64,000 nucleotides of DNA, taken from NCBI GenBank assembly GCA_900318115.1, contig ONJJ01000021.1:8773-72772 (forward strand), given 5' to 3'. The notes beneath the pieces are model-generated. The model worked only from the letters and a program-made list of their open reading frames with translations, did not search any database and was not told where the DNA came from. Below are positions 15,927 through 46,996 of the stretch, piece by piece. Each line of letters begins with the position of its first letter. Positions within the stretch are counted from its first letter, which is position 1. The translations under genes and the position numbers were made by a program. This stretch comes from an uncultured Prevotellaceae bacterium. Lineage in GTDB: Bacteria; Bacteroidota; Bacteroidia; Bacteroidales; Bacteroidaceae.

Positions 15927-17255
15927 TTACAAGTGCTGCAGCGCTTCGACGGGTCGCTTGCGGCAGGTTCGCCAGGCAGGGACGAGGATGCCGAGGGTGA
16001 CGACAGCGAGGAGGATAAGGTACTGGATGACACAGATGACGAGGTAGTGTATCCAGAAGATTTCCACCCAATTGCGCTCCCGTCCCGTGCCGCTCATGCT
16101 TAGGCCATCGGAGAGGTCCATGTTGATGGCGAACTGGAACCAGATGAGCTGGCCGACGATGCAGGCCAGCAGGGTCAGCAGCGCGGCCTCGCCCCATACC
16201 ATACAGAAGATGTCGCGGCGCTTGGCGCCAAAACTGCGCATGATGCCGATGTCCTCCGTGCGCTTGCGCAGCTGCAGCCAGAAAGTGCCGAGTGTGCCCA
16301 GCACCACGTTCAGCAGGAATAGGGCAAGGAGGATTCCGAGGAGGGTGTTGGTGAGGTTGTAGTCTCTGTTGCCACTCCATGACGACAGCCAATCTTTATA
16401 GGTCTGGAGAGAGTAGAGGAAGTGATTGCCGGCTTGTAGCAGAGAGGCGCTGCTTCGACCGTCGGGAAAACCGACGGGCACACTGACGGTTTGGTAGTGA
16501 TTGATGAAGGCTTCTGCATCGGCTTCGGGCTTCAGTCGAATGAGCATCTGCGGGGTTGCATACTCTTGGATTACAGGAGTCAGAATGGAATAGGCATAGC
16601 GATCATTCTGCTGCAAGCGGAAATCCTCCACGACGCCCGCGATGGTGTAGCGGCTGACGATGACCGGCCCGCCTTGCTCCTGCAGCGCACGGTCGCTGAA
16701 GTCCCATTCCACCATGCGGCGGCCCACTACTTGGTCGGTACCAAAGATGGCCTGTGCCAGGCTGCGGGTGATGACCACGCCGCCCTCCGGACATTCCTCG
16801 GAAAGTACTCTCGCCGAAGGGCTGCCCTCGATAGGCGTCAAACCTTGCGTCTCGAAGTACTGCTCATGCAGCAGGAAACCCTGCATGTAGGCTCCGCAAC
16901 GGCGAGTGGAGTCGGCCTCAGAAGCATAGGAACTGGTATGGTAGGTACCTTGGCCAATGATGTGACTGGTGAAGCCTGCATACTGAACCTCGGGCAGAGC
17001 ACGAATCTGGTCGCGCAGGGCATAGAGGGAAGCCTCACCCACGGAAGACGAATTGGGACTGAAGTCCTTGATTCCCGTCTGCCCCACCAACAAGTGCTCC
17101 TTCTCGAACTCCCCGGCGGGACGACAAAAGTATGTGTCGAAGGTGGTTACGACGAAGTGGTCAATGAAGTAGAAACTGAGGACGGTGATGAGGATAATCT
17201 CAGCAAAGACCCAGCCGTTCTGACGGCGATGGGACCAGAGGTTCTTGAGTATCAT
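15927..17255 (-). CDS. FtsX/MacB-type ABC permease, type-2 paralogue (third pair)
   Basis: FtsX block ..IGIMRSFGAKRRDIFCMVWGEAALLTLL..VPAWRTCRKRPVEALQHL. TM1 is WVFAEIILITVLSFYF. The start is set at ATG 17255, which overlaps the upstream stop as ATGA. The 86 extra codons of track ORF 15927..17513 overlap the preceding gene. Confidence 0.85.
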   Translation of the reverse strand: MILKNLWSHRRQNGWVFAEIILITVLSFYFIDHFVVTTFDTYFCRPAGEFEKEHLLVGQTGIKDFSPNSSSVGEASLYALRDQIRALPEVQYAGFTSHIIGQGTYHTSSYASEADSTRRCGAYMQGFLLHEQYFETQGLTPIEGSPSARVLSEECPEGGVVITRSLAQAIFGTDQVVGRRMVEWDFSDRALQEQGGPVIVSRYTIAGVVEDFRLQQNDRYAYSILTPVIQEYATPQMLIRLKPEADAEAFINHYQTVSVPVGFPDGRSSASLLQAGNHFLYSLQTYKDWLSSWSGNRDYNLTNTLLGILLALFLLNVVLGTLGTFWLQLRKRTEDIGIMRSFGAKRRDIFCMVWGEAALLTLLACIVGQLIWFQFAINMDLSDGLSMSGTGRERNWVEIFWIHYLVICVIQYLILLAVVTLGILVPAWRTCRKRPVEALQHL

Positions 17256-18625
17256 TTCTTCTGGTTTAGCGATTCGACAATAGGTTTGCGTAGTGAGGTC
17301 CATGACGGTATGAGGGCGACCATGAGATTCAGGACGACACAGCAGAGAAAGACGATGAGGAAGAGGGCGGGCGTTACGAACATGTTGAAATCCAATGTGA
17401 TGTCGCCTGTGAGGTTGCCTTCGCGGAGGATGAGCGCCTGGAACATCGCCGTATGGCGGACGGCCAGATAGAACAGCCATGAGAGCACCCATCCTACGAG
17501 GCCGCCGCAGCACGTCAGGACGAGGTTCTCGCGAATGACCTCGCGCAGCAGCTTGCGCCGCTTGGCGCCGAATGCTTTGCGTATGCCCATCTCTGCCCGC
17601 CGCGCTTCCATGCGGTTGCTGATGAGACCGCTGAGGTTCAGGGCTGGCAGCAGCAGAAAGATAAGCATCAGGATGGCGGGCGGCATCAGGTTCTTGGCTT
17701 TGTCGGAAGTGGACTCGTCATCGGAGTGGAAGAAACTGAAGCACACAAAGAAATGTGACTTAACATCTACCGCGAAGTGTACGGGCTCGCCTTCGGCTGA
17801 ACTCTGTGCCGCCTCGTAGCGTCGGCACAGCGGTTCCAACTCCTTCATGAAATCGTTGCGCGAATAGCCATTCTTCAGCAGCAAGCGCACGCTGAGGTTT
17901 CCTTTGTAGCTGGTAGGATTAGCCTCAGTATGGCTTAACTCTTTGCCAAGGTAAGGGGCATAGAACTCGGCATAGGAGGCGTCCATCATGGGGCTGGCAC
18001 TCTTGACGATGCCGATGATGCGGTAGGGGATGGAGTTGATGTAAAGGGTGGGCACGGGGGTGGGCTGTTGGGGATTGGGATGGGTTATCCCAATCTTCTC
18101 CAAGAACTTATCCGTCACCACACACACAGGCTCCCCGTTGCGGAACTCCTGTTCGTTGAAAGGGCGGCCCTCGAGGAACTGGAAGTCATAGAGTTGGAAG
18201 AAACGGGGATCGCAGTACAAGGCACGCAGATTGCTTTCCAGCGGAAGAGGAGCCGACGGAACCGAATCCATCCGGAAGAACTCATAGTTATTTCTAAAAA
18301 GCCCCGTTGCCACCTCCACACTCTCCAGTTTGCTGAACAATTCATCCACGGCGAGGGTGCTGCAGCCCGTGTACATCGGACCGTCCACTTCGTTGTCCTT
18401 GTATTGCAAGGCGGTGACATAAAGTGTGCGGTCGCGGTGCGTCTCCGGGTAGATATTCGCCATCTTGATGTTTAGCATGATGGCTACGACCATGGCGGAC
18501 GCTATTGCCACCGCCGTGCCTGCGATGTAGATGGCAAAGGCAATAAAGTCGGACTCTCCCCCCGCCCTCCCTATAAGGGAGGGAGCAGAATGTATTAGAC
18601 TGGATGTATTCGTATTCGTTTTCAT
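17252..18625 (-). CDS. FtsX/MacB-type ABC permease, type-1 paralogue (third pair), with repeat-encoded N-terminus
   Basis: C-terminal block ..MGIRKAFGAKRRKLLREVIRENLVLT..IPSWTSLRKPIVESLNQKK aligns with the other type-1 modules. The N-terminus MKTNTNTSSLIHSAPSLIGRAGGES is encoded by the palindromic cassette. Confidence 0.85.
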   Translation of the reverse strand: MKTNTNTSSLIHSAPSLIGRAGGESDFIAFAIYIAGTAVAIASAMVVAIMLNIKMANIYPETHRDRTLYVTALQYKDNEVDGPMYTGCSTLAVDELFSKLESVEVATGLFRNNYEFFRMDSVPSAPLPLESNLRALYCDPRFFQLYDFQFLEGRPFNEQEFRNGEPVCVVTDKFLEKIGITHPNPQQPTPVPTLYINSIPYRIIGIVKSASPMMDASYAEFYAPYLGKELSHTEANPTSYKGNLSVRLLLKNGYSRNDFMKELEPLCRRYEAAQSSAEGEPVHFAVDVKSHFFVCFSFFHSDDESTSDKAKNLMPPAILMLIFLLLPALNLSGLISNRMEARRAEMGIRKAFGAKRRKLLREVIRENLVLTCCGGLVGWVLSWLFYLAVRHTAMFQALILREGNLTGDITLDFNMFVTPALFLIVFLCCVVLNLMVALIPSWTSLRKPIVESLNQKK

Positions 18626-18706
18626 TTATGTTTATTGGCATTTAATATGTTTTCAAATCTTGAAGGTAACCACTCCCTCCCTCACAGGGAGGGCGGGGAG
18701 TGGGTC
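18551..18706. repeat. Composite palindromic cassette (two inward-facing ~36-nt GC-rich hairpin units plus 84-nt AT-rich spacer carrying a start codon)
   Basis: Units GGACTCTCCCCCCGCCCTCCCTATAAGGGAGGGAGC (18551-18586) and CACTCCCTCCCTCACAGGGAGGGCGGGGAGTGGGTC (18671-18706). ATG 18625 lies in the spacer. Alignable with 24162-24322. Confidence 0.85.
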
Positions 18707-18744
18707 TGTGGGGGGGGCTGTGGGAGGGGGTCTGTGGGAGGGGG
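18707..18744. repeat. G-run tandem tract (TGTGGG(A)GGGGG(T)C x3) between the cassette and the ATPase stop
   Basis: TGTGGGGGGGGC TGTGGGAGGGGGTC TGTGGGAGGGGGC on the + strand (C-rich on the mRNA). Confidence 0.7.
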
Positions 18745-19506
18745 CTACTGAATCTGCCGTCCATCCAAGAACTTGATAATCCTGTCCGTCTGTTCGGCTT
18801 GCTTCTCGTTGTGCGTCACCATGACTATGGTGCGGCCGTCCTCTTTATTCAGCTTATGCAGTAGCTCCATAATCTCGGCGCCCATCTTCGAGTCGAGGTT
18901 ACCTGTGGGCTCGTCGGCGAGGAGGATTTCGGGGTTACCGATGATGGCGCGGGCGATGGCTACGCGCTGACACTGACCACCAGAGAGTTGCGTTGGGCGG
19001 TGCTTCATGCGGTGCGAGAGGCCTACGCGGGCAATGACTTCCTTGGCCAGCCGCGTGCGCTCGCTGCGGCCTACGCCCCGATAGATAAGGGGCAGCATCA
19101 CGTTGTCCAGTACGTTCAGCGTCGGGATGAGGTGGAAGCTCTGGAAGACGAAGCCCAGCGTCTTGTTGCGGATCTCCGCCAGACGGTTGTCGCTCATCTT
19201 CGGGTCGATGCGCTGTCCGCACAGCTCTATCTCGCCGCTGGTGGGTTCGTCTAAGAGTCCCATGATGTTCAGCAGCGTCGACTTGCCGCAGCCCGAAGGT
19301 CCCATGATGCTGAGGAACTCGCCCCTCTTCACTTCGAGGTTCACATTTTCGAGGGCTTGTGTCTCTACTTCGTCGGTACGGTAGATCTTGTTGATGCCGG
19401 TAAGGCGGATAACAGCCTCACCCCCAACCCCTCTCCGAAAAGAGAGGGGAGTGGTTACATCTTGACTCGGTTGATTCTGGTCGTTAAAAATCTTTTCAGT
19501 GTTCAT
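18745..19506 (-). CDS. ABC transporter ATP-binding protein (MacB/LolD-like NBD)
   Basis: Walker A GPSGCGKST, signature LSGGQCQRVAIARA, Walker B ILLADEPTGNLD. The 31-residue N-terminal extension contains the repeat-encoded TTPLSFRRGVGGEA. Confidence 0.9.
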   Translation of the reverse strand: MNTEKIFNDQNQPSQDVTTPLSFRRGVGGEAVIRLTGINKIYRTDEVETQALENVNLEVKRGEFLSIMGPSGCGKSTLLNIMGLLDEPTSGEIELCGQRIDPKMSDNRLAEIRNKTLGFVFQSFHLIPTLNVLDNVMLPLIYRGVGRSERTRLAKEVIARVGLSHRMKHRPTQLSGGQCQRVAIARAIIGNPEILLADEPTGNLDSKMGAEIMELLHKLNKEDGRTIVMVTHNEKQAEQTDRIIKFLDGRQIQ

Positions 19507-19639
19507 AATTTCCTTTTATTTAGTTAATAATTCTATTCTTGAAACTAATAACTCCCCTCATAACTCCCCTCTCCTTTCGGAGAGGGGTCGGGGGTGAGGC
19601 CACTCCCCTCTCCTTTCGGAGAGGGGCGGGGGGAGAGTC
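19415..19639. repeat. Composite palindromic cassette, variant B (one unit in the ATPase 5' coding region, two tandem units upstream, AT-rich spacer with start codon)
   Basis: GCCTCACCCCCAACCCCTCTCCGAAAAGAGAGGGGAGTGG (19415-19454). ACTCCCCTCTCCTTTCGGAGAGGGGTCGGGGGTGAGGC (19563-19600). CACTCCCCTCTCCTTTCGGAGAGGGGCGGGGGGAGAGTC (19601-19639). ATG 19506 lies in the spacer. Confidence 0.85.
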
Positions 19640-19641
19640 TT

Positions 19642-22203
19642 CTACTCTTCCTTTATTGCCTCCACTATATTACTCCTGCTAATCCTCCACGCCGGTATGG
19701 CCGTAGCCACGAGCACGGTCCCTAATATAATAAGGTACACGCACGCGGAGACGACGAGGAAGTGGGTGCCGAAGCTGTCGAACCAGAAGTGGACGGCGGG
19801 ATTATGAGTGCCGTAGTCGTCGCCGAGGCCACGCGCAGCGGCAAACTGGAAGTAGATGATGCAGCCGATGACGACGCTGACGGTGGTGAGCAGCCACGCC
19901 TCGCGCAGGAAGCCGAGGAAGACGCTCCACTTCGTAGCGCCGAAGGCACGACGGATGCCGGCCTCCTCGCGACGCTGCCGCGTGTACATAAGCAGGGTGC
20001 CGAAGACGCCGAAAGCCAGGTTCGAAGCAAAGAAGGCGGCAATGAGTGAGTTTCGACGGACGCGTCGGTCTGGCCCCGTTCGTCGGTCTCTTTCTGCCGT
20101 GGCTTCCCTACTCGACTGCATACGGCGCACGAAGCAATGCTCCATTGTCAGGTCTGTCTCCATCTGCCGCTGATGACTCTGGATGAACTGCTCTGCATCC
20201 ACGCCCTCGCGCAGCCGCAGGATGATGGGTGCGTTCGGGAGATAGCCGTTGTCACATTCAAAGATACAGGAGAAGTCGCGGTCGTAACTGCTGTAGCGCA
20301 TATCTTCAACCACGGCACGGATTCGGTATTCCGTTTCTATCCATTCTACATTTCCTGTCTCTTCCTTGTAACCAAACTTCGTTCCTCCTATCTTCCTGCC
20401 TGCCACGTCGATAGTGCCGAAAAGCCCCATGGCGGCGGAACGTGTGATGATGACGGTCTCACCATCCACGCAGTCGTGGGTGAGTTCGCTGTTGGGTACG
20501 CTGGGCGTCAGCGATTGGAAACCATAGACTTCAAACATCCGGGAGTCGGGACTGAATTGCCAGTTCCAACCCGTGATGGTGTCGCCGTCGACGAAATAGC
20601 TGCGACCTGGCACCACCACGCCAAAGCCCATCGGAGTGCAGTGTGCCGTATAGGCCATCTCCACGCCATCCATCTCCTGCGCCTTCTGCAGCAGCACCTC
20701 CGCCTCCTGCATGGATTTGTACAAGTCTTTATGCTGCTCTTGTCGCGTCACGGAACGCGCTACTTCCAAATTCACAAGGCGGTCGGGGTCGTAGCCAAGG
20801 GGAAGGTGCGTGACGTAGGAGGTGATGAGTACGGGGTCTAAGGTCCACCAGAGGACGAAGGTGACGAGGATGAGTTCTGCAGCTATCCATATCTTCGAGC
20901 GCCATCCCCCACCCTCGCCCTGCTCTTCATTCATCATGCCTTCCACAATCGGCTTACGAAGGCTGAGCCACGCAGGCAAAGTTGCTGCCAATACATTCAA
21001 CGTACAGCAGATAACGAGGGCAATGAGGAAGATGGCAGGGACAAGGAACATCTCGCCGCGAAGAATAGGCACAACGGGCGACAGGCCGTAGATTCCAGAG
21101 AATATGTAGAACACCCAGTCGCGCCAGGCGTAGAGCGCCAGCCAGGCGAGACACAGCCCCAGGAGCCCGCCGATAAGCGTCAGCGTCAGGTTCTCACGTA
21201 TGACCTGCCAGAGCAGCGTGCGCCGCTTGGCACCAAAGGCTTTGCGCACCGCCATTTCCGGCAGCCGGCGTTGCATACGTGCTGCCACCATTCCGCTGAG
21301 GTTCAGCGCAGGCACCAGCAACAGGAGCAGGATGGCAGGAGCAACGTACCACGTCAGGTTAGAACCCCACGCACTGAACACCGTGCCGAGGTCTTGCCAG
21401 ACGGCGGCGTAATGCGATTTGAGTTCGGCATTCATATCCACAGGTCTGTCGCCATGCACGGCGTTGTAGCGCGATTCCACTTCCTTCAGTTCTTGCATGA
21501 AAGCATCGCGTTGACCGTACGGAACCACAAAGCTTACCTTTAACGGAATCTCGTGGAAATCAGCAGCCCAGTCTTCTACAATGCCTTCGGCTGTATAAGG
21601 GATCCACACATCCGCCACACATTCTTCTGTCAGCACGCTCGGTGTCTGTACTACGCCGATGAGGCGGTAGGGACGGTGGTTGATGATGATGGTTTGACCC
21701 ACGGCTACATTTGCACCCTTCGCCACCTCCTCCGTCACCACGACCACAGGCCGATGGGCATCGAAGTCATCCTGCGTGAACGGAGCGCCTTGAAGGAAAC
21801 GAAACTGGAAGAAACGGAAGAAGCCCGGTTCCGTCAGCTTTACGTTCACTTGGCGGTCGTGCAGGCCATCGGCCAACTTCATATAGAACTCATCGGCGCC
21901 CCAAAAATTCATCCAAGCGGTAATGCACGTAGGCGTCTGCATCGTCTGAAACAAGTCGTGGAACACATCTGGCCGTATGACTTCCACCTTATCGGATTCG
22001 TTCTTCCTGCCCATGTATTCCATATAGTAAGTCTTGCTCCTATTCACCTCCGGCGCGATGTCCGCCACCTTCACATAATAGATCTCGGTGATGAGCATCG
22101 TGAAAGCGATGGCGAGGGCGGTGCCGAGGATGTAGATAGTGGAAAATAGTTTCTCCTCGCGCATCCTGGCCAAGGCCTGACGAATATACATAAACACTTT
22201 CAT
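19642..22203 (-). CDS. Fused double FtsX/MacB-type permease (type-1 half plus type-2 half, 853 aa)
   Basis: The N-half MKVFMYIRQALARMREEKLFS... to ..LPAWLSLRKPIVEGMMNEEQ matches the whole of 24328..25689. The C-half ..IWIAAELILVTFVLWWTLDP.. to ..AIPAWRISRSNIVEAIKEE matches 22893..24230. Confidence 0.9.
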   Translation of the reverse strand: MKVFMYIRQALARMREEKLFSTIYILGTALAIAFTMLITEIYYVKVADIAPEVNRSKTYYMEYMGRKNESDKVEVIRPDVFHDLFQTMQTPTCITAWMNFWGADEFYMKLADGLHDRQVNVKLTEPGFFRFFQFRFLQGAPFTQDDFDAHRPVVVVTEEVAKGANVAVGQTIIINHRPYRLIGVVQTPSVLTEECVADVWIPYTAEGIVEDWAADFHEIPLKVSFVVPYGQRDAFMQELKEVESRYNAVHGDRPVDMNAELKSHYAAVWQDLGTVFSAWGSNLTWYVAPAILLLLLVPALNLSGMVAARMQRRLPEMAVRKAFGAKRRTLLWQVIRENLTLTLIGGLLGLCLAWLALYAWRDWVFYIFSGIYGLSPVVPILRGEMFLVPAIFLIALVICCTLNVLAATLPAWLSLRKPIVEGMMNEEQGEGGGWRSKIWIAAELILVTFVLWWTLDPVLITSYVTHLPLGYDPDRLVNLEVARSVTRQEQHKDLYKSMQEAEVLLQKAQEMDGVEMAYTAHCTPMGFGVVVPGRSYFVDGDTITGWNWQFSPDSRMFEVYGFQSLTPSVPNSELTHDCVDGETVIITRSAAMGLFGTIDVAGRKIGGTKFGYKEETGNVEWIETEYRIRAVVEDMRYSSYDRDFSCIFECDNGYLPNAPIILRLREGVDAEQFIQSHQRQMETDLTMEHCFVRRMQSSREATAERDRRTGPDRRVRRNSLIAAFFASNLAFGVFGTLLMYTRQRREEAGIRRAFGATKWSVFLGFLREAWLLTTVSVVIGCIIYFQFAAARGLGDDYGTHNPAVHFWFDSFGTHFLVVSACVYLIILGTVLVATAIPAWRISRSNIVEAIKEE

Positions 22204-22245: not shown

Positions 22246-22262
22246 TTGCAATTTCCGTGCCA
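22246..22262 (-). promoter_or_regulatory. Sigma-54 promoter (TGGCACGGAAATTGCA) upstream of the fused permease / ATPase / third permease pair
   Basis: Minus-strand TGGCAC-N5-TTGCA, -12 element about 45 nt upstream of ATG 22203. Confidence 0.8.
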
Positions 22263-22304: not shown

Positions 22305-22343
22305 TGTCCATTTCTGGACACACGATGTGTTCGGAAATGGACA
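22305..22343. promoter_or_regulatory. Paired enhancer (UAS) dyads for the NtrC-type activator
   Basis: TGTCCATTTCTGGACA (22305-22320) and TGTTCGGAAATGGACA (22328-22343). The same pair recurs at the other two sigma-54 promoters. Confidence 0.7.
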
Positions 22344-22892: not shown

Positions 22893-24230
22893 TCACTCCT
22901 CCCTCAGCGCATTGGTGATACGTGTCCTTGTGATGCGCCATGCTGGTATGGCGGTTCCGATGAGGACGGTGACTAATATAATAAGGTACACGACGGCGGA
23001 GACGATGAGGAAGTGGGACCAGAAGTGGTCGGGCCAGGTCATATCGGTGGCGAGGTCGTAGAACATGGGCATGTAGAGCGTTTCAAAGGCCGTGACGCCG
23101 TCCTCGGTGGTGGTGATGCCGCTGTAGGCATAGTTCAGGTAGATGATGACTCCGATGAGTACGGCGGCAGTGGCGAGGGCTTCGTTCCGCAACAGCATCT
23201 CGCAGAACAGACGGCGGCGGGTGGCACCAAAGGCTCGGCGTACACCACACTCTTCTGTGCGACGCTTGGCGTGGAGCCAGACGGTGCCGATGACGGCGAG
23301 GACGAGATTCAGCAGGAAGAAGAGGGCGAGGGCCAGACTGCGGTTCACCTCCTGTGTGCGGCCGTCGTCCAATTCCTGCTGCTGCAGACGGTCATCGTAG
23401 GTCATGAGCGTGCTGATGCGAGCGAAGTTAGTCTTGCCGCTACGGATGAGGTCTCGGCCGTGATCCTCCACAAAACGGCGGGCGTCAACGCCCTCGCGCA
23501 GACGAAGAACAAAGAGGCATTGGGTGGTTTGCAGGGTTCCGGGTTTGAGGATAATCGAGCGCTGGTTGAAGGGCAGCGCCTTGCGGAAATCCTCCACCAC
23601 GCCGGCCACCGTCACCTCGTAAGCCGGCTGATAGCATAACGTGAAGCGGCGGCCCACCACGTCGGCGGTGCCGAAGAGGGCAATGGCACCAGAGCGCGTG
23701 AGCACCACCTTCGGTTCCTGCCATGGGATGCGTGAGAGTTCTTCGGCAGAGGGGCTGCCAGGCAGAGGATGCAGGCCGTAGGTCTCGAAGAAGCGGGAGT
23801 CGGGAATGAACAGGACATGTGCCAGCAGGATGGTGTCGCCCTCATTGCAACATTGAAGATAGCCGGAGCTGGTCGAGCCGATGGAGGAGTAGCGGTCGTC
23901 GTAGAGGTACGCTGTCTCCACGCCTTCTACTTCCGTCAGCTGGCGCGTCAGCTGCTGGCGGCGTTTCTCGGTCATCTTATAGGGGTCTGTCAGGTCGCCA
24001 TCCTCATCGGTTTCCCATTCACCATCCACGGTACATTCTCCGTAGAGCAGGCGGCTGGTGTCATAACCTAATGGCAGGTTGCGGTAATAGAGATTGACAA
24101 CGGCAGGGTCGAAGACCACCCAGGCAACGACGGTGATGATGACGAGCTCGAGGAAAAGGACGGACTCTCCCCCCGCCCTCCCTGTTAGGGAGGGAGCGGA
24201 ATGTATTTGACTGGCTGTATTCATTTTCAT
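22893..24230 (-). CDS. FtsX/MacB-type ABC permease, type-2 paralogue (first pair), with repeat-encoded N-terminus
   Basis: FtsX block ..CGVRRAFGATRRRLFCEMLL..AIPAWRITRTRITNALREE. The first 23 codons MKMNTASQIHSAPSLTGRAGGES lie in the palindromic cassette. Confidence 0.85.
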   Translation of the reverse strand: MKMNTASQIHSAPSLTGRAGGESVLFLELVIITVVAWVVFDPAVVNLYYRNLPLGYDTSRLLYGECTVDGEWETDEDGDLTDPYKMTEKRRQQLTRQLTEVEGVETAYLYDDRYSSIGSTSSGYLQCCNEGDTILLAHVLFIPDSRFFETYGLHPLPGSPSAEELSRIPWQEPKVVLTRSGAIALFGTADVVGRRFTLCYQPAYEVTVAGVVEDFRKALPFNQRSIILKPGTLQTTQCLFVLRLREGVDARRFVEDHGRDLIRSGKTNFARISTLMTYDDRLQQQELDDGRTQEVNRSLALALFFLLNLVLAVIGTVWLHAKRRTEECGVRRAFGATRRRLFCEMLLRNEALATAAVLIGVIIYLNYAYSGITTTEDGVTAFETLYMPMFYDLATDMTWPDHFWSHFLIVSAVVYLIILVTVLIGTAIPAWRITRTRITNALREE

Positions 24231-24322
24231 TTATGTTTTATTGTTCATTTAATCTTTTTAAGTGTTTACCATCCTTGAAGGTATTTGCTCCCTCCCTAAC
24301 AGGGAGGGCGGGGGGAGAGTCC
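24162..24322. repeat. Composite palindromic cassette (two inward-facing units plus 89-nt AT-rich spacer carrying a start codon)
   Basis: GGACTCTCCCCCCGCCCTCCCTGTTAGGGAGGGAGC (24162-24197) and GCTCCCTCCCTAACAGGGAGGGCGGGGGGAGAGTCC (24287-24322). ATG 24230 lies in the spacer. Confidence 0.9.
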
Positions 24323-24327
24323 GTTTT

Positions 24328-25689
24328 TTATTGCTTTTCCATCATTGATTCTACAATAGGTTTGCGCAAACTCCACCACGCAGGCACTACGGCGGCGAGC
24401 AGGTTGAGGAGGAGGATGGCAGCGAAAGCACAGAGGAAGAGTGTGGGAGCAAAGAGCATCTCACCTTCCACGATGGGTGCTGTGGTGAGCGTGCTTCTGT
24501 CGAAGAACATGCCAAATATCTCCGTGCGCAACCCGTAGATGGCGAGCCACGATAGAGCGAGACCGATGGCACCGCCGATACTAGTCAGCAGCAGGTTCTC
24601 CCATACTACTTGATTTAAAAGTGTGCTGCGACGTGCACCGAAAGTCTTGCGAACCGCCATCTCCGCCGACCGCCGTTCCATGCGTCCCGCGACAATGCTG
24701 CAGAGGTTCAGTGCAGGAACAAAGAGCAACACGAAAAGGATGCCCGCGTAGTGCTTGAAGAGCTGCCAACCCGTGACGACGCCGAAGACGCCGTCGCGAT
24801 TCTCGGTGCGCAGCACGTGCATCGGGTGCGTTTCCAAGCCCTTGGTGAGCACCATCGTCATCTTCACGCCTTCGCCGAAGCTGAAGTTGCGAGTGGGCAT
24901 CAAATCTGGCTGAGACAGCTGGAGGCGCACGACCAGGTCATCCAGTTCCTGCTTCAGCGCCTGAAGGTGCTCACTGTCTTTCACGGTGGCGATGACGGCG
25001 AACAGGCCGGAATAGGGTGAACCTACATAGAAATCCACAAGCGTGTAGGGGATGATAATGTCGGCATAGCTGTCGGGGGTGAGCTGGCTCCCACTGCGCA
25101 CCACGCCCACCACGCGTGTCTCGGGGTTGTTCTCGATGGTTATCATGCGTCCCAAGGCGTTCTCACCCTTACCGAACAGCCGCTCGGCCAGCGCATCGGT
25201 GATGACACAGACGGCCTCCTTTGCCTCCACCTCCTGTGCTGTGAAAGGCCGACCGCTCACGAAGTCGTACTCGTAGATCTTGAAGAAGTCGGCATTGGTC
25301 CAGTTCTTGACGACGTTGATGTACTCGTCATGACCACGCACCACACAGGCGTGACTGCGGCTATCCATCTTGCCCGTTCCTGCGGCGAGTAGCGTGGGTG
25401 CGCAGTACTCGATATGAGGACTCGGAAGGAACCACTCCTCAAACGCCTTTGGGCTAAAACCCGTGTTGCCCTGTCCACCATTCTCGGCCTGAATGTTAAT
25501 ACCCTCGAAGTACACCGTCCGCGAACGGTTCACTTCGGGGTAGATGGGAGCGAGCTTGATGTAATAGACCACCGCCATCACCATCGTGAAGGCAAGGGCC
25601 ATGGCGGTACCTGCGATGTAGATACCGGAGAAGAGCTTCTCCTCGCGCATCATGGCCAGGGCCTGGCGAATGTACATAAATACTTTCAT
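24328..25689 (-). CDS. FtsX/MacB-type ABC permease, type-1 paralogue (first pair)
   Basis: Start set at ATG 25689 (MKVFMYIRQALAMMREEKLFS), matching the start of 19642..22203. The track start 25755 would run through the sigma-54 promoter. FtsX block ..MAVRKTFGARRSTLLNQVVWENLLLT..VPAWWSLRKPIVESMMEKQ. Confidence 0.85.
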   Translation of the reverse strand: MKVFMYIRQALAMMREEKLFSGIYIAGTAMALAFTMVMAVVYYIKLAPIYPEVNRSRTVYFEGINIQAENGGQGNTGFSPKAFEEWFLPSPHIEYCAPTLLAAGTGKMDSRSHACVVRGHDEYINVVKNWTNADFFKIYEYDFVSGRPFTAQEVEAKEAVCVITDALAERLFGKGENALGRMITIENNPETRVVGVVRSGSQLTPDSYADIIIPYTLVDFYVGSPYSGLFAVIATVKDSEHLQALKQELDDLVVRLQLSQPDLMPTRNFSFGEGVKMTMVLTKGLETHPMHVLRTENRDGVFGVVTGWQLFKHYAGILFVLLFVPALNLCSIVAGRMERRSAEMAVRKTFGARRSTLLNQVVWENLLLTSIGGAIGLALSWLAIYGLRTEIFGMFFDRSTLTTAPIVEGEMLFAPTLFLCAFAAILLLNLLAAVVPAWWSLRKPIVESMMEKQ

Positions 25690-25731: not shown

Positions 25732-25748
25732 TTGCAATTTCCGTGCCA
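25732..25748 (-). promoter_or_regulatory. Sigma-54 promoter (TGGCACGGAAATTGCA) upstream of the first permease pair
   Basis: Identical 16-mer to the one at 22246-22262, about 45 nt upstream of ATG 25689. Confidence 0.8.
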
Positions 25749-25791: not shown

Positions 25792-25830
25792 TGTCCATTT
25801 CTGGACAATCGGAGTGTTCGGAAATGGACA
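25792..25830. promoter_or_regulatory. Paired enhancer (UAS) dyads
   Basis: TGTCCATTTCTGGACA (25792-25807) and TGTTCGGAAATGGACA (25815-25830), ending 1 nt before the kinase stop codon. Confidence 0.7.
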
Positions 25831-25831
25831 A

Positions 25832-27118
25832 TCAAGGCTTAGCGGCTGGGAAGAGGATGGTGAAACGGGTGAGGTGGTCGGTGGGGTCGGTCTGAAGGGT
25901 AAAGGTACATCCGTGTGCGGTGAGGATATCGCGGATGAGCAGGAGGCCGAGGCCCTGACCTTGGGGCTTGGTGGAGAAGAAGGGTGTGAAGAGGTGCCGT
26001 GCTGCTTCGGTGGAGATGCCACGACCGTTGTCGGTGATGGTAAGGGAAGACTCTCCCCCCGCCCTCCCTGTTAGGGAGGGAGCATAATGATTTGAAGGCA
26101 GTAACTTCTGAATAGCGACGGTAATTACTCCCTCCCTCATAGGGAGGGCGGGGGGAGAGTCCTTTATACTCTCCACGCTATTCTTAACAATATTCACCAG
26201 CACTTGCTGAAAGAGGACGGGGTCGAGGTGGACGGGGATGGCATCGTCAGTCAGGTGGAAGTCGAGACGGACGTTGGCAGCAAGGCAGAGGTTCTCGAGG
26301 AAGGGTCGACAGCCCTCGACTTCCTCGCTGAGGTCGCAGAGCTGCAGCTGCGGCGCTGGAATCTTGACGACTTCGGCGAAGCGTGTGACGAAGGAGGCCA
26401 TGGCCAAGAGCCGTTCGCGTAAAGCGGTATTGTCCAATGCGCCAACGATTCCCGCCACGCTGTTGTTGACCTCATGGGCTATCATTCGGATGACGCGCTC
26501 GTAGGCTGCTTTCTCTGCCAATCTGACCTCGGAGGTGAGGGACTCGATGAGGTAGAAAGGATGCTGATAGCCGCGGTCGGGGAACGAGAGGTGGCTGATG
26601 CGAAAGATACCAGGTTCGGCAGTCAGACGCACGGTAGTCTCGCTGCCGAGGGGCAGACGTTGCATGGCCTCGGAGATGACGGGCTTCATCATGCTGCGTG
26701 CGGCAGGATTCATGGAGGTGATGTTGCCATCGAGGTCGCATTGCACAACGCCCATGGGCGAAGCTTCGATGAGCAGGCTGAGGAAGGTGTATTGCTCTTC
26801 GAGGCTGAGGTGTTCGGTACGCAGCCGGGCAAGCAAGTCGTTGAAGGTGTGGACGATGATGTCTGTCTCGTGTTGTCCTGACGGGGCGAGGCGTGTGGTG
26901 AGGTCGAGGTCACGCACGAGTTCCATTCCGCTGATGAGGGTGTCGTAGGGCTGAAGCGTACGGCGATAGAAATATATAAGATAGATGAGTAGCAGGACGA
27001 TGAAGCACTCCGTCGTGTAGAATAGCCAAGAGTGACTCTGGAAGGTGGCGAACAGAGCCACACCCGCGAGCAGAAGAATGGCAACCACAAGAATCAGAAA
27101 AGAATACTTCAGTTTCAT
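25832..27118 (-). CDS. Sensor histidine kinase (2 TM, PAS-like, HisKA, HATPase_c) partner of the sigma-54 activator
   Basis: TM helices in MKLKYSFLILVVAILLLAGVALF.. and ..CFIVLLLIYLIYFY. H-box RMIAHEVNNS, N-box VLVNIVKNSVESI, G-boxes TDNGRGIS and GQGLGL. The ATG overlaps the upstream stop (ATGA at 27115-27118). Confidence 0.85.
   Translation of the reverse strand: MKLKYSFLILVVAILLLAGVALFATFQSHSWLFYTTECFIVLLLIYLIYFYRRTLQPYDTLISGMELVRDLDLTTRLAPSGQHETDIIVHTFNDLLARLRTEHLSLEEQYTFLSLLIEASPMGVVQCDLDGNITSMNPAARSMMKPVISEAMQRLPLGSETTVRLTAEPGIFRISHLSFPDRGYQHPFYLIESLTSEVRLAEKAAYERVIRMIAHEVNNSVAGIVGALDNTALRERLLAMASFVTRFAEVVKIPAPQLQLCDLSEEVEGCRPFLENLCLAANVRLDFHLTDDAIPVHLDPVLFQQVLVNIVKNSVESIKDSPPALPMREGVITVAIQKLLPSNHYAPSLTGRAGGESSLTITDNGRGISTEAARHLFTPFFSTKPQGQGLGLLLIRDILTAHGCTFTLQTDPTDHLTRFTILFPAAKP
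26049..26161. repeat. Inward-facing pair of palindromic units inside the histidine-kinase HATPase domain, read through in frame
   Basis: GACTCTCCCCCCGCCCTCCCTGTTAGGGAGGGAGC (26049-26083) and ACTCCCTCCCTCATAGGGAGGGCGGGGGGAGAGTC (26127-26161). 21-nt perfect terminal inverted repeat. Confidence 0.9.
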
Positions 27119-28500
27119 AGGCCGTGCTTCTCGATTTTGCGATAGAGGGCACCTCGGCTGATTCCGAGTTCCTTGGCCACGAGGGAGAGGTTTCCGGCGT
27201 GCTTCTGGATGGAGGCGGCGATGGCGGCGCGCTCGAGTTCTTCAAGGGTGGGAGATGGACCCGTCGGGGAAACCGACGGGCACACTGACTCATGGGAAGA
27301 GGGGGACAGGGACTGGCGAAAGTCGGCAGCGGTGAGTTCCTCTCCTTCTGCCATCAGCACGGTTCGCTCCACCAGGTTCTTCAGTTCGCGAATGTTGCCG
27401 GGGAGAGGGAGGGATTGGAGGAAGGAGATGGCATCCGCGGTGATGGCAATGTCGGTGGAGAGCGTGGACTGATGCAGGAAGAAATCCACAAGGATGGGGA
27501 TGTCCTCGCGGCGCTGGCGCAGGGGCGGCAGGTGGAGACTGATGAGGTTGATGCGGTAGAAGAGGTCTTCGCGGAAGGTGTGTTCCTCCACCATGGAGGG
27601 GAGATCCGCATTGGTGGCGCAGATGACACGGACATCGGTGCGGCGTGTGTGGCTGTCGCCCAGTACCTCGTAGGTCTGATCCTGAAGCACTCGGAGCAGC
27701 TTCACCTGGCTGGCAAGGTCGAGTTCTCCGATTTCGTCGAGGAAGATGGTGCCTCCCCTGGCGAGTTCGAATCGCCCTACCCTATCCTCTTTTGCATCGG
27801 TGAAGGCTCCTTTCTTATGGCCAAACATCTCGCTCTCGAACAACGACTGGGAAATACCTCCGAGGTTCACCTTCACGAAAGGTCCTTCGGCACGACGGCT
27901 CTGCCGGTGAATGGCCTCGGCAATAAGCTCCTTGCCCGTACCGCTCTCGCCCGTGATGAGGACGGGTGCATTGGTGGGAGCGATGCGGGCGATGGTGGAA
28001 TATACGGAGGCGAGGGAGGGGAGGAAGGCCCCTCTCCCCGCTCCCCCCGTGGGGGGGAGAGCTCTGGCAAAAGTTGATTCTTCACAAAGTTTTCGAGCGG
28101 AGCGAGGCTCTCCCCCTTTACGGGGGAGCGGGGAGAGGGTCCTCGCCGTTTCAATCCGATCCATGAGCACGCCGTTGTCCCACGGCTTGGTGATGAAGTC
28201 AAAGGCGCCGGCACGCATTCCCTGCACGGCAAGGTCTATGGTGCCCCAGGCTGTCATGAGGATGCAGGGAAGGTCTGGACGGAAGACCTTAACCTGCTTG
28301 AGCAGGGTGAGGCCTTCGTCGCCGGTAGTGGAATTGTCGTAGTTCATATCCATCAGAACCAATTCCACTTCCGGATGGCTTCGCACGACAGTGATGGCCT
28401 CCTTGGGGTTCTCGGCCAGTGCCACCGTGTAGTCGTTACGCTCCAGGACAAGTTTCAGCGTGAAACGGATGGTCTTATCGTCATCTACAACTAATATCAT
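27115..28500 (-). CDS. Sigma-54-dependent response regulator (receiver + AAA+ + Fis-type HTH), NtrC family
   Basis: Receiver MILVVDDDKTIRFTL..LVLMDMNY... Walker A GESGTGKE. Sigma-54 contact loop GAFTDA (GAFTGA variant). C-terminal HTH LVAKELGISRGALYRKIEKHGL. Confidence 0.9.
   Translation of the reverse strand: MILVVDDDKTIRFTLKLVLERNDYTVALAENPKEAITVVRSHPEVELVLMDMNYDNSTTGDEGLTLLKQVKVFRPDLPCILMTAWGTIDLAVQGMRAGAFDFITKPWDNGVLMDRIETARTLSPLPRKGGEPRSARKLCEESTFARALPPTGGAGRGAFLPSLASVYSTIARIAPTNAPVLITGESGTGKELIAEAIHRQSRRAEGPFVKVNLGGISQSLFESEMFGHKKGAFTDAKEDRVGRFELARGGTIFLDEIGELDLASQVKLLRVLQDQTYEVLGDSHTRRTDVRVICATNADLPSMVEEHTFREDLFYRINLISLHLPPLRQRREDIPILVDFFLHQSTLSTDIAITADAISFLQSLPLPGNIRELKNLVERTVLMAEGEELTAADFRQSLSPSSHESVCPSVSPTGPSPTLEELERAAIAASIQKHAGNLSLVAKELGISRGALYRKIEKHGL
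28027..28142. repeat. Inward-facing pair of palindromic units (variant C) inside the response-regulator linker, read through in frame
   Basis: GGCCCCTCTCCCCGCTCCCCCCGTGGGGGGGAGAGC (28027-28062) and GGCTCTCCCCCTTTACGGGGGAGCGGGGAGAGGGTCC (28105-28142). The outer 21 nt are inverted repeats (20/21). Confidence 0.85.
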
Positions 28501-31454: not shown

Positions 31455-31470
31455 GGCAAAAAGGGTGCCA
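31455..31470 (-). promoter_or_regulatory. Sigma-54 promoter (TGGCACCCTTTTTGCC) upstream of the TolC gene
   Basis: Minus-strand TGGCAC-N5-TTGC. The -12 element is only about 16 nt from ATG 31440. Confidence 0.7.
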
Positions 31471-31513: not shown

Positions 31514-31551
31514 TGTCCATTTTCGGACACGCAGGTGTTCGGAAATGGACA
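31514..31551. promoter_or_regulatory. Paired enhancer (UAS) dyads
   Basis: TGTCCATTTTCGGACA (31514-31529) and TGTTCGGAAATGGACA (31536-31551). Confidence 0.7.
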
Positions 31552-46687: not shown

Positions 46688-46761
46688 AGCCTCTTGTCGG
46701 ATTCGAACCAACGACCCCGAGATTACAAATCACGTGCTCTGGCCAACTGAGCTAAAGAGGC
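46688..46761 (-). tRNA. tRNA-Thr (anticodon UGU)
   Basis: Reverse complement GCCTCTTTAGCTCAGTTGGCCAGAGCACGTGATTTGTAATCTCGGGGTCGTTGGTTCGAATCCGACAAGAGGCT folds as a cloverleaf: 7-bp acceptor, GTTCGAATC T-loop, anticodon loop TTTGTAA. Confidence 0.9.
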
Positions 46762-46908
46762 GGGTGGGAATGCGATCTGCATCGCGCCGCTACGACCAAG
46801 TACCCTTGCTGCGGTCAAGCCCTGGGGGATTCCGAGGGAGCTGGCCGTACAGGACATTCCCGTGGATGCTGCCTTGGGGCAGTTAGCTGCTGCTTGGATT
46901 ACAGCTTG
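46762..46908 (-). ncRNA. Candidate structured RNA, or an unusually long structured inter-tRNA spacer
   Basis: 147 nt between two co-oriented tRNAs. Helices on the minus strand: GGGAAUG/CAUUCCC enclosing CCUGUACGGCCAG/CUUGGUCGUAGCGG (with G-U pairs that would be C-A mismatches on the other strand), plus the local hairpins CUGCC-CCAA-GGCAG and GCGAU-GCAG-AUCGC. No family recognised. Confidence 0.25.
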
Positions 46909-46996
46909 CGGAGAGAGCGAGATTCGAACTCGCGAACCGGTTTTGCCGGTCACACGCTTTCCAGGCGTGCCTCTTCAGCCACTCGAGCATCTCTCC
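46909..46996 (-). tRNA. tRNA-Ser (anticodon GGA), long variable arm
   Basis: Reverse complement GGAGAGATGCTCGAGTGGCTGAAGAGGCACGCCTGGAAAGCGTGTGACCGGCAAAACCGGTTCGCGAGTTCGAATCTCGCTCTCTCCG: anticodon loop CTGGAAA, variable stem CCGG/CCGG, T-loop TTCGAAT. Confidence 0.9.

Follow-up and report, generated by a model that had tools for sequence, protein, structure and literature searches.

In the 64,000-nt stretch of Prevotellaceae DNA analysed here (the window, to whose numbering all coordinates refer), a short segment at 24162-24322 separates two permease genes. We consider it likely that this segment, called copy A below, is a copy of a non-autonomous palindromic mobile element belonging to a nuclease-associated family of rumen and gut Prevotellaceae. 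The window contains three copies of this family (A, B, and C) and two related elements, all within 18.5-28.2 kb; these five elements and their host genes are read on the minus strand. The repeat core of the family, CCCTCCCT-N4-GGGAGGG, has six sites in the window (12 matches on both strands) and none in 100 shuffled sequences, and the predicted RNA fold of copy A has z = -12.65; therefore, the presence of the core is not due to chance.

A first-pass annotation of this DNA had described the junction upstream of permease A as a stop codon, 5 nt, a G+C-rich unit, an AT-rich spacer of 89 nt, and a second G+C-rich unit, and this layout is correct (Table 1). The 5 nt are AAAAC, and the GC content of the spacer is 27%, compared with the window average of 56.5%. 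The ATG at 24230 lies within the spacer directly after an in-frame TAA and starts an open reading frame (ORF) of 445 codons, the first 23 of which are, as had been claimed, encoded by copy A. Past the ATG codons, the next in-frame start codon, beyond the element, is a GTG within the first transmembrane segment (TM1), and hence the permease indeed has no alternative start before TM1. The start at 24230 was chosen by gene callers on at least 23 contigs. The second copy reported at the time, copy B (18552-18706), aligns with copy A through the spacer and contains all seven of the listed shared blocks.

On the other hand, the two units are not separate hairpins clamping the spacer, as had been supposed. 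They constitute the arms of a single inverted repeat (36-43 nt) and are 95% complementary. In the predicted minimum-energy RNA fold, the arms pair with each other and form a 38-bp stem of -95.8 kcal/mol, while the local hairpins of the arms contribute just -15.8 and -20.7 kcal/mol.

Orthologous sites lacking the element reveal what it has replaced. Among 120 protein clusters of permease A orthologs, 84 are empty and begin with MKLNNILNANTW followed by LFLELV or similar, and 36 are filled, that is, have palindrome-encoded N-termini. L119 and L143 provided the empty sites that were compared with the window. In L119, the empty-site DNA reads GAGAAAAGATAAGA, ATGAAACTGAATAATATCCTGAACGCGAACACATGG, and CTGTTCCTCGAACTC in succession, and relative to it the window element stands in place of 36 native nucleotides and a 2-nt gap. 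At permease B, the syntenic empty locus has a native 46-nt spacer and MIKIIRHAFALIRED before KLFSAIYVAGTAVAIAS (KLFSAIY); the element replaces both, so that ∼46 nt of intergenic DNA and ∼15 native codons are gone. With the native junction replaced, along with 12-15 codons ahead of TM1, both permeases would depend on the element ATG. These comparisons support the donation of a start codon and an N-terminal tail by the element at permeases A and B, in agreement with the original description of a portable intercistronic cassette that contributes coding sequence. The native N-terminus MKLNNILNANTW was also considered as an excision footprint, since both it and the element-encoded one start with ATGAAA-TGAATA; we rejected this, as the similarity stops there and paralogs have comparable native tails.

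The permease A junction is occupied repeatedly and by different elements. In other lineages (L120, L121, L122, and L142), it carries complete elements of different repeat families, and some elements at this junction have arms from two families. In a tree of the permease bodies (from TM1 onward, excluding the N-terminal segment), filled and empty alleles are interspersed, requiring at least 23 parsimony changes. The bodies of a filled and an empty allele may be as much as 97.6% identical, and those of two filled alleles of different families, 97.4%. The coexistence of filled and empty alleles at up to 97.6% protein identity means that the element is dispensable for expression. The histidine kinase gene of the cluster, which contains copy C, behaves similarly, with empty forms (NAVESIGTTQGLITLEVTVPATLTITDNG) alongside forms filled by several families at the same place.

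Near-isogenic L142 (filled) and L143 (empty), the permeases of which are 97.6% identical, have nearly identical DNA from TTCCTCGAACTGG onward, with one mismatch in ∼100 nt. To the left of the element, L142 (150-420) has a different neighborhood, with an opposite-strand gene instead of the upstream permease, and judging from this alignment the element in L142 marks a rearrangement breakpoint. At the permease A site of L120 (2640-3075), we observed a ∼430-nt composite with the left and right arms from different families; several more G+C-rich hairpins (e.g., GGCAGGGGTGAAACCCCTGC) occupy its interior, which lacks a DUF559 gene of the kind described below.

The family is large. A scan of genome contigs, with one genome per species, yielded the repeat core in at least 117 stretches, and all copy statistics rest on these and the window. 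All but one come from metagenome-assembled genomes (MAGs) of Prevotellaceae/Bacteroidales, with hosts including goat, sheep, deer, reindeer, buffalo, and horse. The exception (L105, CADBUP010000190.1) is a 3.5-kb contig with a single repeat match, from a MAG labelled 'Ruminococcus sp.' and thus outside Bacteroidales; this is probably a binning error, transfer being possible as well. A fuzzy search identified at least 231 repeat arms and at least 82 paired elements of 100-581 nt, with the mode at 113 nt. The ends are two G+C-rich terminal inverted repeats of 34-43 bp, RGACTCTCCCCCCGCCCTCCCT-N4-GGGAGGGAG, each with an 8-bp hairpin, inverted around a variable A+T-rich core. We attempted to orient the 82 elements by two subterminal motifs, which failed (49 remained ambiguous) because the inner ends are heterogeneous; the contexts were therefore analysed by reading frames. 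A search of Rfam 15 gave no match at the gathering score, and a permissive threshold produced only spurious sub-threshold hairpins of miRNA precursors.

The genomic contexts were characterized for 79 paired copies from other genomes, leaving out the three window copies. Twenty-seven of them are located inside ORFs whose open frame extends 240 nt or more to either side, and 25 of these are read in one fixed frame, with the left arm translated as DSPPALPVREG and the right arm as APSLTGRAGGES. In 22 of the 25 same-frame copies the length is 2 mod 3, which together with one flanking base adds whole codons; the remaining elements are spread over the three residues as 19, 18, and 15. Nine host ORFs were scanned with Pfam, and all nine matched recognised families, namely, PurL, DNA polymerase I, an AcrB-type pump of the resistance-nodulation-division (RND) type, topoisomerase, M16 peptidase, an MFS transporter, ferredoxin, TamB, and a glycosyltransferase. 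Separate domain matches flank the insert in PurL, DNA polymerase I, and topoisomerase, and a single Pfam match spans it in the RND pump, M16 peptidase, MFS transporter, and TamB.

The expectation that further copies should be found at gene starts was also borne out. In 33 of the 79 copies, the core has stops but also an internal ATG, from which translation in the same fixed frame would cross the right arm and enter an ORF that is 100 codons long or longer. The internal ATG is mostly 62-71 nt from the element end, and the next in-frame ATG beyond the element is typically ∼100 nt away. ORFs leaving the element from an internal ATG are strongly biased toward this frame (33 in frame 1 versus 4 and 6 in the other two). 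A co-directional upstream ORF is present in all 33 cases, and in 27 of them its stop is at most 16 nt before the element or at most 1 nt into it. Altogether, 59 of the 79 copies (75%), representing 51 distinct gene contexts, occupy translated-looking positions.

Longer elements with the same ends point to the possible origin of the family. Five elements of ∼430-490 bp were found; the protein encoded by L091 is truncated, and the other four elements encode an intact protein of ∼121 aa. No long ORF is present in three other elements, which are 250-400 bp in length. The protein belongs to Pfam DUF559 (PF04480, E = 1.9e-33) and has the PD-(D/E)xK fold; PDB 3HRL (E = 3e-16) is a relative, and the mobile-intron nuclease 3R3P (E = 0.003) is a weaker one. 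It groups with Vsr and the I-Bth0305I-type nuclease, and a published survey (PMC3424549) assigns DUF559 to the Vsr clade.

On the sense strand, the long element consists of an arm, ∼26-60 nt, the DUF559 ORF with its stop codon overlapping a restart ATG, and the second arm, followed by the host gene; there is no room for a promoter of its own. In L131, L141, and L123, the overlap takes the form ATGA or AATGAATAA (GAATGAATACA or CAATGAATAA). The genes downstream of the long elements include fmt, an argB-like gene, and a gene for an AMP-binding enzyme. In L138, where an ABC ATPase gene is downstream, the restart ATG is 15 nt past the DUF559 stop, with no overlap. The end of the copy A spacer, AAATGAATACAGCCAGTCAAATACATTC, is homologous to the region of the DUF559 stop, which suggests that the window copies are internal-deletion derivatives. 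The window itself contains no DUF559 gene.

Moreover, the repeats and the nuclease gene appear to have diverged together. Four further DUF559 loci all have such flanking repeats, the sequence of which changes with that of DUF559. In particular, two species share a locus in which DUF559 lies between a CLC channel gene and fmt; the DUF559 proteins show 84% and 69% identity, respectively, with the family-1 query, and their repeats have diverged in step. Several MAGs contain one DUF559 copy and many short copies. We found ∼1,284 related DUF559 proteins, mostly of 121-127 aa and mostly from Prevotella-type MAGs. Many of the matches are on contigs shorter than 2 kb, and so the assemblies likely break at these repeats.

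Taken together, these data suggest the following scheme. The short copies would be internally deleted relatives of the ∼490-bp DUF559 element. They would be tolerated within genes as their repeats are free of stop codons in the one frame given above. Copies of 2-mod-3 length with a stop-free core would be read straight through, adding a peptide of ∼38 aa, as in copy C. At operon junctions, copies with stops in the core would let the upstream gene end before the left arm, with the internal ATG restarting translation via the right arm. In the long elements, the ATG overlapping the DUF559 stop would likewise re-open translation into the downstream host gene. We infer that the element ATG is used for translation, possibly by termination-reinitiation, and the predicted 38-bp stem between the arms may affect processing or stability of the mRNA. 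The DUF559 nuclease is a candidate for mobilising or maintaining the repeats.

We further put forward, tentatively and with slightly less than even confidence, that these elements represent an undescribed class of selfish elements in rumen Prevotella, comprising a promoter-less DUF559 gene within hairpin-containing inverted repeats and many short derivatives adapted to operons and coding regions, with the nuclease as the candidate engine. If true, dozens of genes, including essential ones, have received new N-termini or linker peptides from such elements, and different repeat families turn over at the same genomic sites.

Several observations weigh against reading copy A as a nuclease-associated mobile element. 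Each exact DUF559 variant was found at a single locus across samples, which fits vertical inheritance and is no evidence for movement of the long elements; DUF559 could be cargo rather than the engine. Mobility and nuclease activity are predicted from sequence, and initiation at the element ATG is predicted from the logic of the ORFs and from gene calls. As for the 38-bp stem, it might impede expression instead of helping it. Copies A and B took the place of native sequence instead of inserting cleanly, and one site carries several repeat families in genes that are 95-97% identical. For a filled allele compared with an empty one, dN/dS is 0.35, calculated on only 20 differences. Simple cut-and-paste or copy-in movement explains neither the replacements nor the several families at one site, and recombination between copies or allelic exchange must be invoked; the turnover may stem from repeated targeting, from recombination among copies of the element, or from strains exchanging alleles. 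The filled/empty polymorphism yielded neither a cleavage site nor a conversion tract for homing.

The first-pass annotation had interpreted copy A as a self-contained module for translation initiation and mRNA punctuation, which would be selected by the host and in which a GC hairpin on either side keeps an A/U-rich start window open and unstructured. On this view, the module is reused wherever a cistron inside an operon requires a start, the phylum lacking Shine-Dalgarno pairing. We now consider this improbable. In its favor, 33 of 79 copies come right after an upstream stop with the ATG in a fixed frame, the 30 nt preceding this ATG are 74% A+T and 40% A, filled alleles persist with intact ORFs in orthologs 63-90% identical to the window protein, and copies A and B are inside sigma-54 operons. 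However, element-free orthologs, some of them 97.6% identical, have a start of their own at the same junction, so the module is not needed. The same ends occur in frame inside unrelated genes (PurL, PolA, AcrB-type pumps, topoisomerase, and the histidine kinase), where they have no start function, and also bracket the nuclease gene. The predicted fold is a single inter-arm stem rather than two clamps. Finally, partial duplications of the tips, hybrid arms, and the rearrangement breakpoint at an element end are marks of a selfish repeat.

Less probable again is a classical MITE (miniature inverted-repeat transposable element), that is, a deletion derivative of an insertion sequence moved by a DDE transposase in trans, with the coding compatibility arising by selection after insertion. 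Short length, terminal inverted repeats, multiple copies, and the variable core all agree with a MITE, and in-frame MITE fusions are known (PMC10969869). However, no target-site duplication was detected in 42 clean copies at offsets from 0 to 3, which argues against a DDE-type MITE. Direct flank repeats in these copies were below chance (one at k = 1 and none at k ≥ 3), and the flanks, purine on the left and pyrimidine on the right (R...Y), instead extend the inverted symmetry of the repeat, the tip of which is RGACTC. Among the loci covered, DUF559 is the gene in all longer elements that share these ends and have a recognisable gene, and no transposase-bearing parent with these ends was found. 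Typical MITEs are intergenic, unlike the three quarters of copies in translated-looking positions.

It is very unlikely that the elements merely disrupted the genes, leaving permeases A and B as pseudogenes with their native starts lost and the in-frame ATG fortuitous. In favor of this, both permeases have lost their native cytoplasmic N-terminal segment, which paralogs and orthologs conserve. Still, both ORFs, of 445 codons in permease A and 457 codons in permease B, are intact, with full MacB_PCD and FtsX domains, and the 36 orthologous clusters with such N-termini have full-length bodies. The frame bias would be unexpected for dead genes, and the dN/dS value, weak evidence as it is, points the same way. 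Least credible of all is an inverton, with the inverted repeats as recombination sites and flipping of the spacer switching the downstream gene: inverted repeats of 36-43 bp do surround a short A+T-rich segment and Bacteroidales are rich in invertons, but the spacer orientation is constant, with the ATG toward the gene, at all orthologous filled sites read, the exact protein is in the same orientation on at least 23 contigs (as contig sequences), the spacers of copies A and B lack a promoter-like site of the E. coli sigma-70 type, and the in-frame and nuclease-bearing copies do not fit a switch.

We return to the mobile palindromic element and to its surroundings in the window. The elements lie in a cluster of MacB-type exporters, which is divided into three transcription units by three exact sigma-54 motifs TGGCAC-N5-TTGC on the minus strand (22248-22262, 25734-25748, and 31456-31470). 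Palindromes TGTCCA-N4-TGGACA (22305-22320, 25792-25807, and 31514-31529), each ∼45 nt upstream of a sigma-54 motif, are probably the binding sites of the adjacent NtrC-like regulator. Since these transcription units span the 18.5-28.2 kb stretch, copies A and B are internal to operons. A terminator scan detected no minus-strand terminators at the window elements, and no promoter-like site was found in the spacers of copies A and B with the E. coli-type sigma-70 consensus, the only one scanned; following these scans, terminator and promoter roles were set aside.

Table 1. The elements of the window, their parts, and the adjoining permease genes.
Feature	Position	Strand	Description
Copy A, complete palindromic element	24162..24322	-	GACTC..GAGTC at 24163-24321 (159 nt) plus one flanking purine/pyrimidine pair
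Copy A, 5' arm (terminal inverted repeat)	24287..24322	-	GGACTCTCCCCCCGCCCTCCCTGTTAGGGAGGGAGC; GGACTCTCCCCCCGCCCTCCCT-GTTA-GGGAGGGAGC; 8-bp local hairpin inside
Copy A, AT-rich spacer	24198..24286	-	27% GC; 5-codon mini-ORF ATGAACAATAAAACATAA, restart ATG directly after it
Copy A, 3' part of the spacer			AAATGAATACAGCCAGTCAAATACATTC; homologous to the region at and after the DUF559 stop codon of long elements
ATG of permease A	24228..24230	-	Opens ORF 22893..24230; second in-frame ATG at 24224-24222
Copy A, 3' arm	24162..24197	-	GCTCCCTCCCTAACAGGGAGGGCGGGGGGAGAGTCC; translated as (S)APSLTGRAGGES, fused to TM1 of the permease
Permease A (MacB_PCD + FtsX)	22893..24230	-	12 native first codons replaced by 23 element-encoded codons
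Upstream permease	24328..25689	-	Same sigma-54 operon; native stop TAA at 24330-24328, 5 nt before the element
Copy B, same family	18552..18706	-	155 nt; ATG at 18625 opens permease B, ORF 17252..18625
Degenerate tandem copies of the repeat tip	18707..18745	-	CCCCCTCCCACAGA-like, three times; between the ATPase stop and copy B
Copy C, 113-nt form	26049..26161	-	In frame inside histidine kinase ORF 25832..27118; reads DSPPALPMREGVITVAIQKLLPSNHYAPSLTGRAGGES
Related element, second repeat family	19415..19640	-	GCCTCACCCCCGACCCCTCTCC-N4-GGAGAGGGGAGT; two tandem 5' arms
Related element, third repeat family	28027..28142	-	GGACCCTCTCCCCGCTCCCCC-N4-GGGGGAGAGC; in frame in NtrC-like regulator 27115..28500

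Copy C interrupts the histidine kinase between the N box and the G1 box. Its center (GVITVAIQK, compared with native GLITLEVTV) may be a retained native beta-strand, although its GVIT part comes from the conserved subterminal GTAATTACC of the element. The element of the third family occupies the linker between the receiver and AAA+ domains of the NtrC-like regulator and reads TLSPLPRKGGEPRSARKLCEESTFARALPPTGGAGRGA. The element of the second family is located between the genes of an 853-aa permease and an ABC ATPase, and its first 5' arm is a hybrid, with a GACTC-family tip on a second-family hairpin. Its internal ATG at 19506 opens the ATPase ORF 18745..19506, whose product starts with MNTEKIFNDQNQPSQDVTTPLSFRRGVGGEA followed by VIRLTGINKIY and is 28 aa longer than the L119 ortholog.

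Some smaller features of the cluster resemble parts of the elements. Tip duplications like the ones next to copy B were seen elsewhere as DSPPAQDSPPALP or GGESPGGES, and such tandem copies could be slippage products or footprints of repeated events. The linker of the two-domain 853-aa permease (ORF 19642..22203) reads EEQGEGGGW (CAGGGCGAGGGTGGGGGATGG; 20895-20935, minus strand) and resembles the outer half of the right arm, and the corresponding genes of L119 are separate (422 and 430 aa). The linker may thus be what is left of an element by which two permease genes, once separate, became joined. Elsewhere in the window, a Bacteroidales small signal recognition particle RNA (46688-46996, minus strand, 113.9 bits) between two tRNA genes fixes the taxonomic order.

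We searched the literature on DUF559 with inverted repeats or mobile elements, on MITEs in Prevotella, and on palindromic intragenic repeats in Prevotella, and found no earlier description of the family; as the coverage of subscription-journal papers was thin, this is weak evidence of novelty. The component features are known, and as far as the searched literature goes it is their combination in Bacteroidota, together with systematic donation of start codons, that is new. For annotation, it means that many gene starts and internal 38-aa inserts in Prevotella are element-derived. Bacteroidota are a phylum without Shine-Dalgarno pairing, and the family offers dozens of natural internal-cistron starts useful for studies of initiation and termination-reinitiation there. 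The candidate enzyme makes the question of mobility testable in cultivable rumen bacteria.

Among known systems, the analogy with repetitive extragenic palindromic (REP) elements, drawn in the first-pass annotation, holds for the architecture and fails for the defining features, i.e., the gene for a REP-associated tyrosine transposase (RAYT), the GTAG/CGTC tag, and the extragenic location. Similar to REP doublets forming hairpins (REPINs), hairpin-forming G+C-rich units are arranged here as inverted doublets around a short spacer. Both systems have many short copies and one or a few gene-bearing copies bracketed by the same repeats, the repeat changes along with the gene, and target duplications are lacking. 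Unlike REPIN/RAYT systems, the associated gene encodes a PD-(D/E)xK nuclease of the DUF559 family and not an HUH Y1 transposase, and most copies are intragenic or translated rather than extragenic. The tip is RGACTC instead of the GTAG/CGTC tetranucleotide at the repeat end, which serves as the REP tag criterion (PMC3733652).

The long elements also resemble the free-standing Vsr-like homing endonuclease genes described in 'fractured genes' (Dassa et al., 2009; PMC2677866). Those inserts are co-oriented with their hosts and overlap them in reading frame; upstream of the nuclease ORF lies a hairpin, control elements come along with the insert, and an intein-less insert in SbcD gives the flanking ORFs new C- and N-terminal residues (PMC2677866). 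With them, the long relatives have in common a small nuclease ORF of the Vsr family that is oriented like the host genes, as well as the overlapping frames, the hairpin, and the accompanying control elements. However, the Vsr-like inserts are mostly found in phage loci, often with split inteins, and have neither terminal inverted repeats nor a swarm of short derivatives, and the long Prevotella elements are at gene junctions and do not split a demonstrably single gene.

Correia elements (Correia repeat enclosed elements, CREE) of Neisseria are mostly intergenic and have a TA target duplication, which is absent from the Prevotella family, and to our knowledge they do not donate start codons. 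They carry promoters and an IHF site; their paired repeats form a long dsRNA stem that is cleaved by RNase III (PMC10969869). Like them, the Prevotella elements are short, bounded by inverted repeats, and co-transcribed with the neighboring genes, and the predicted 38-bp stem would be a comparable substrate.

The closest parallel is provided by Rickettsia palindromic elements (RPEs), from which tolerance of selfish DNA inside genes and tight operons is mainly known. We know of no enzyme mobilising RPEs or of the means by which they spread. They are frequently inserted in frame into unrelated housekeeping genes, adding a peptide segment (PMC10969869). In both cases, palindromic multicopy repeats of ∼100-150 bp are found in frame, here in 27 of 79 copies within long ORFs, typically in inter-domain linkers; the likeness is by analogy, and the host phylum differs, being represented here by Bacteroidales. 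Unlike RPEs, the Prevotella family combines two designed-looking solutions, translatable ends and a built-in restart codon, the latter providing a start-donor mode at operon junctions, and has a candidate partner in DUF559. If the proposed association is correct, DUF559 would be, among palindromic elements like RPEs or REPs, the first candidate engine that is not a tyrosine transposase.

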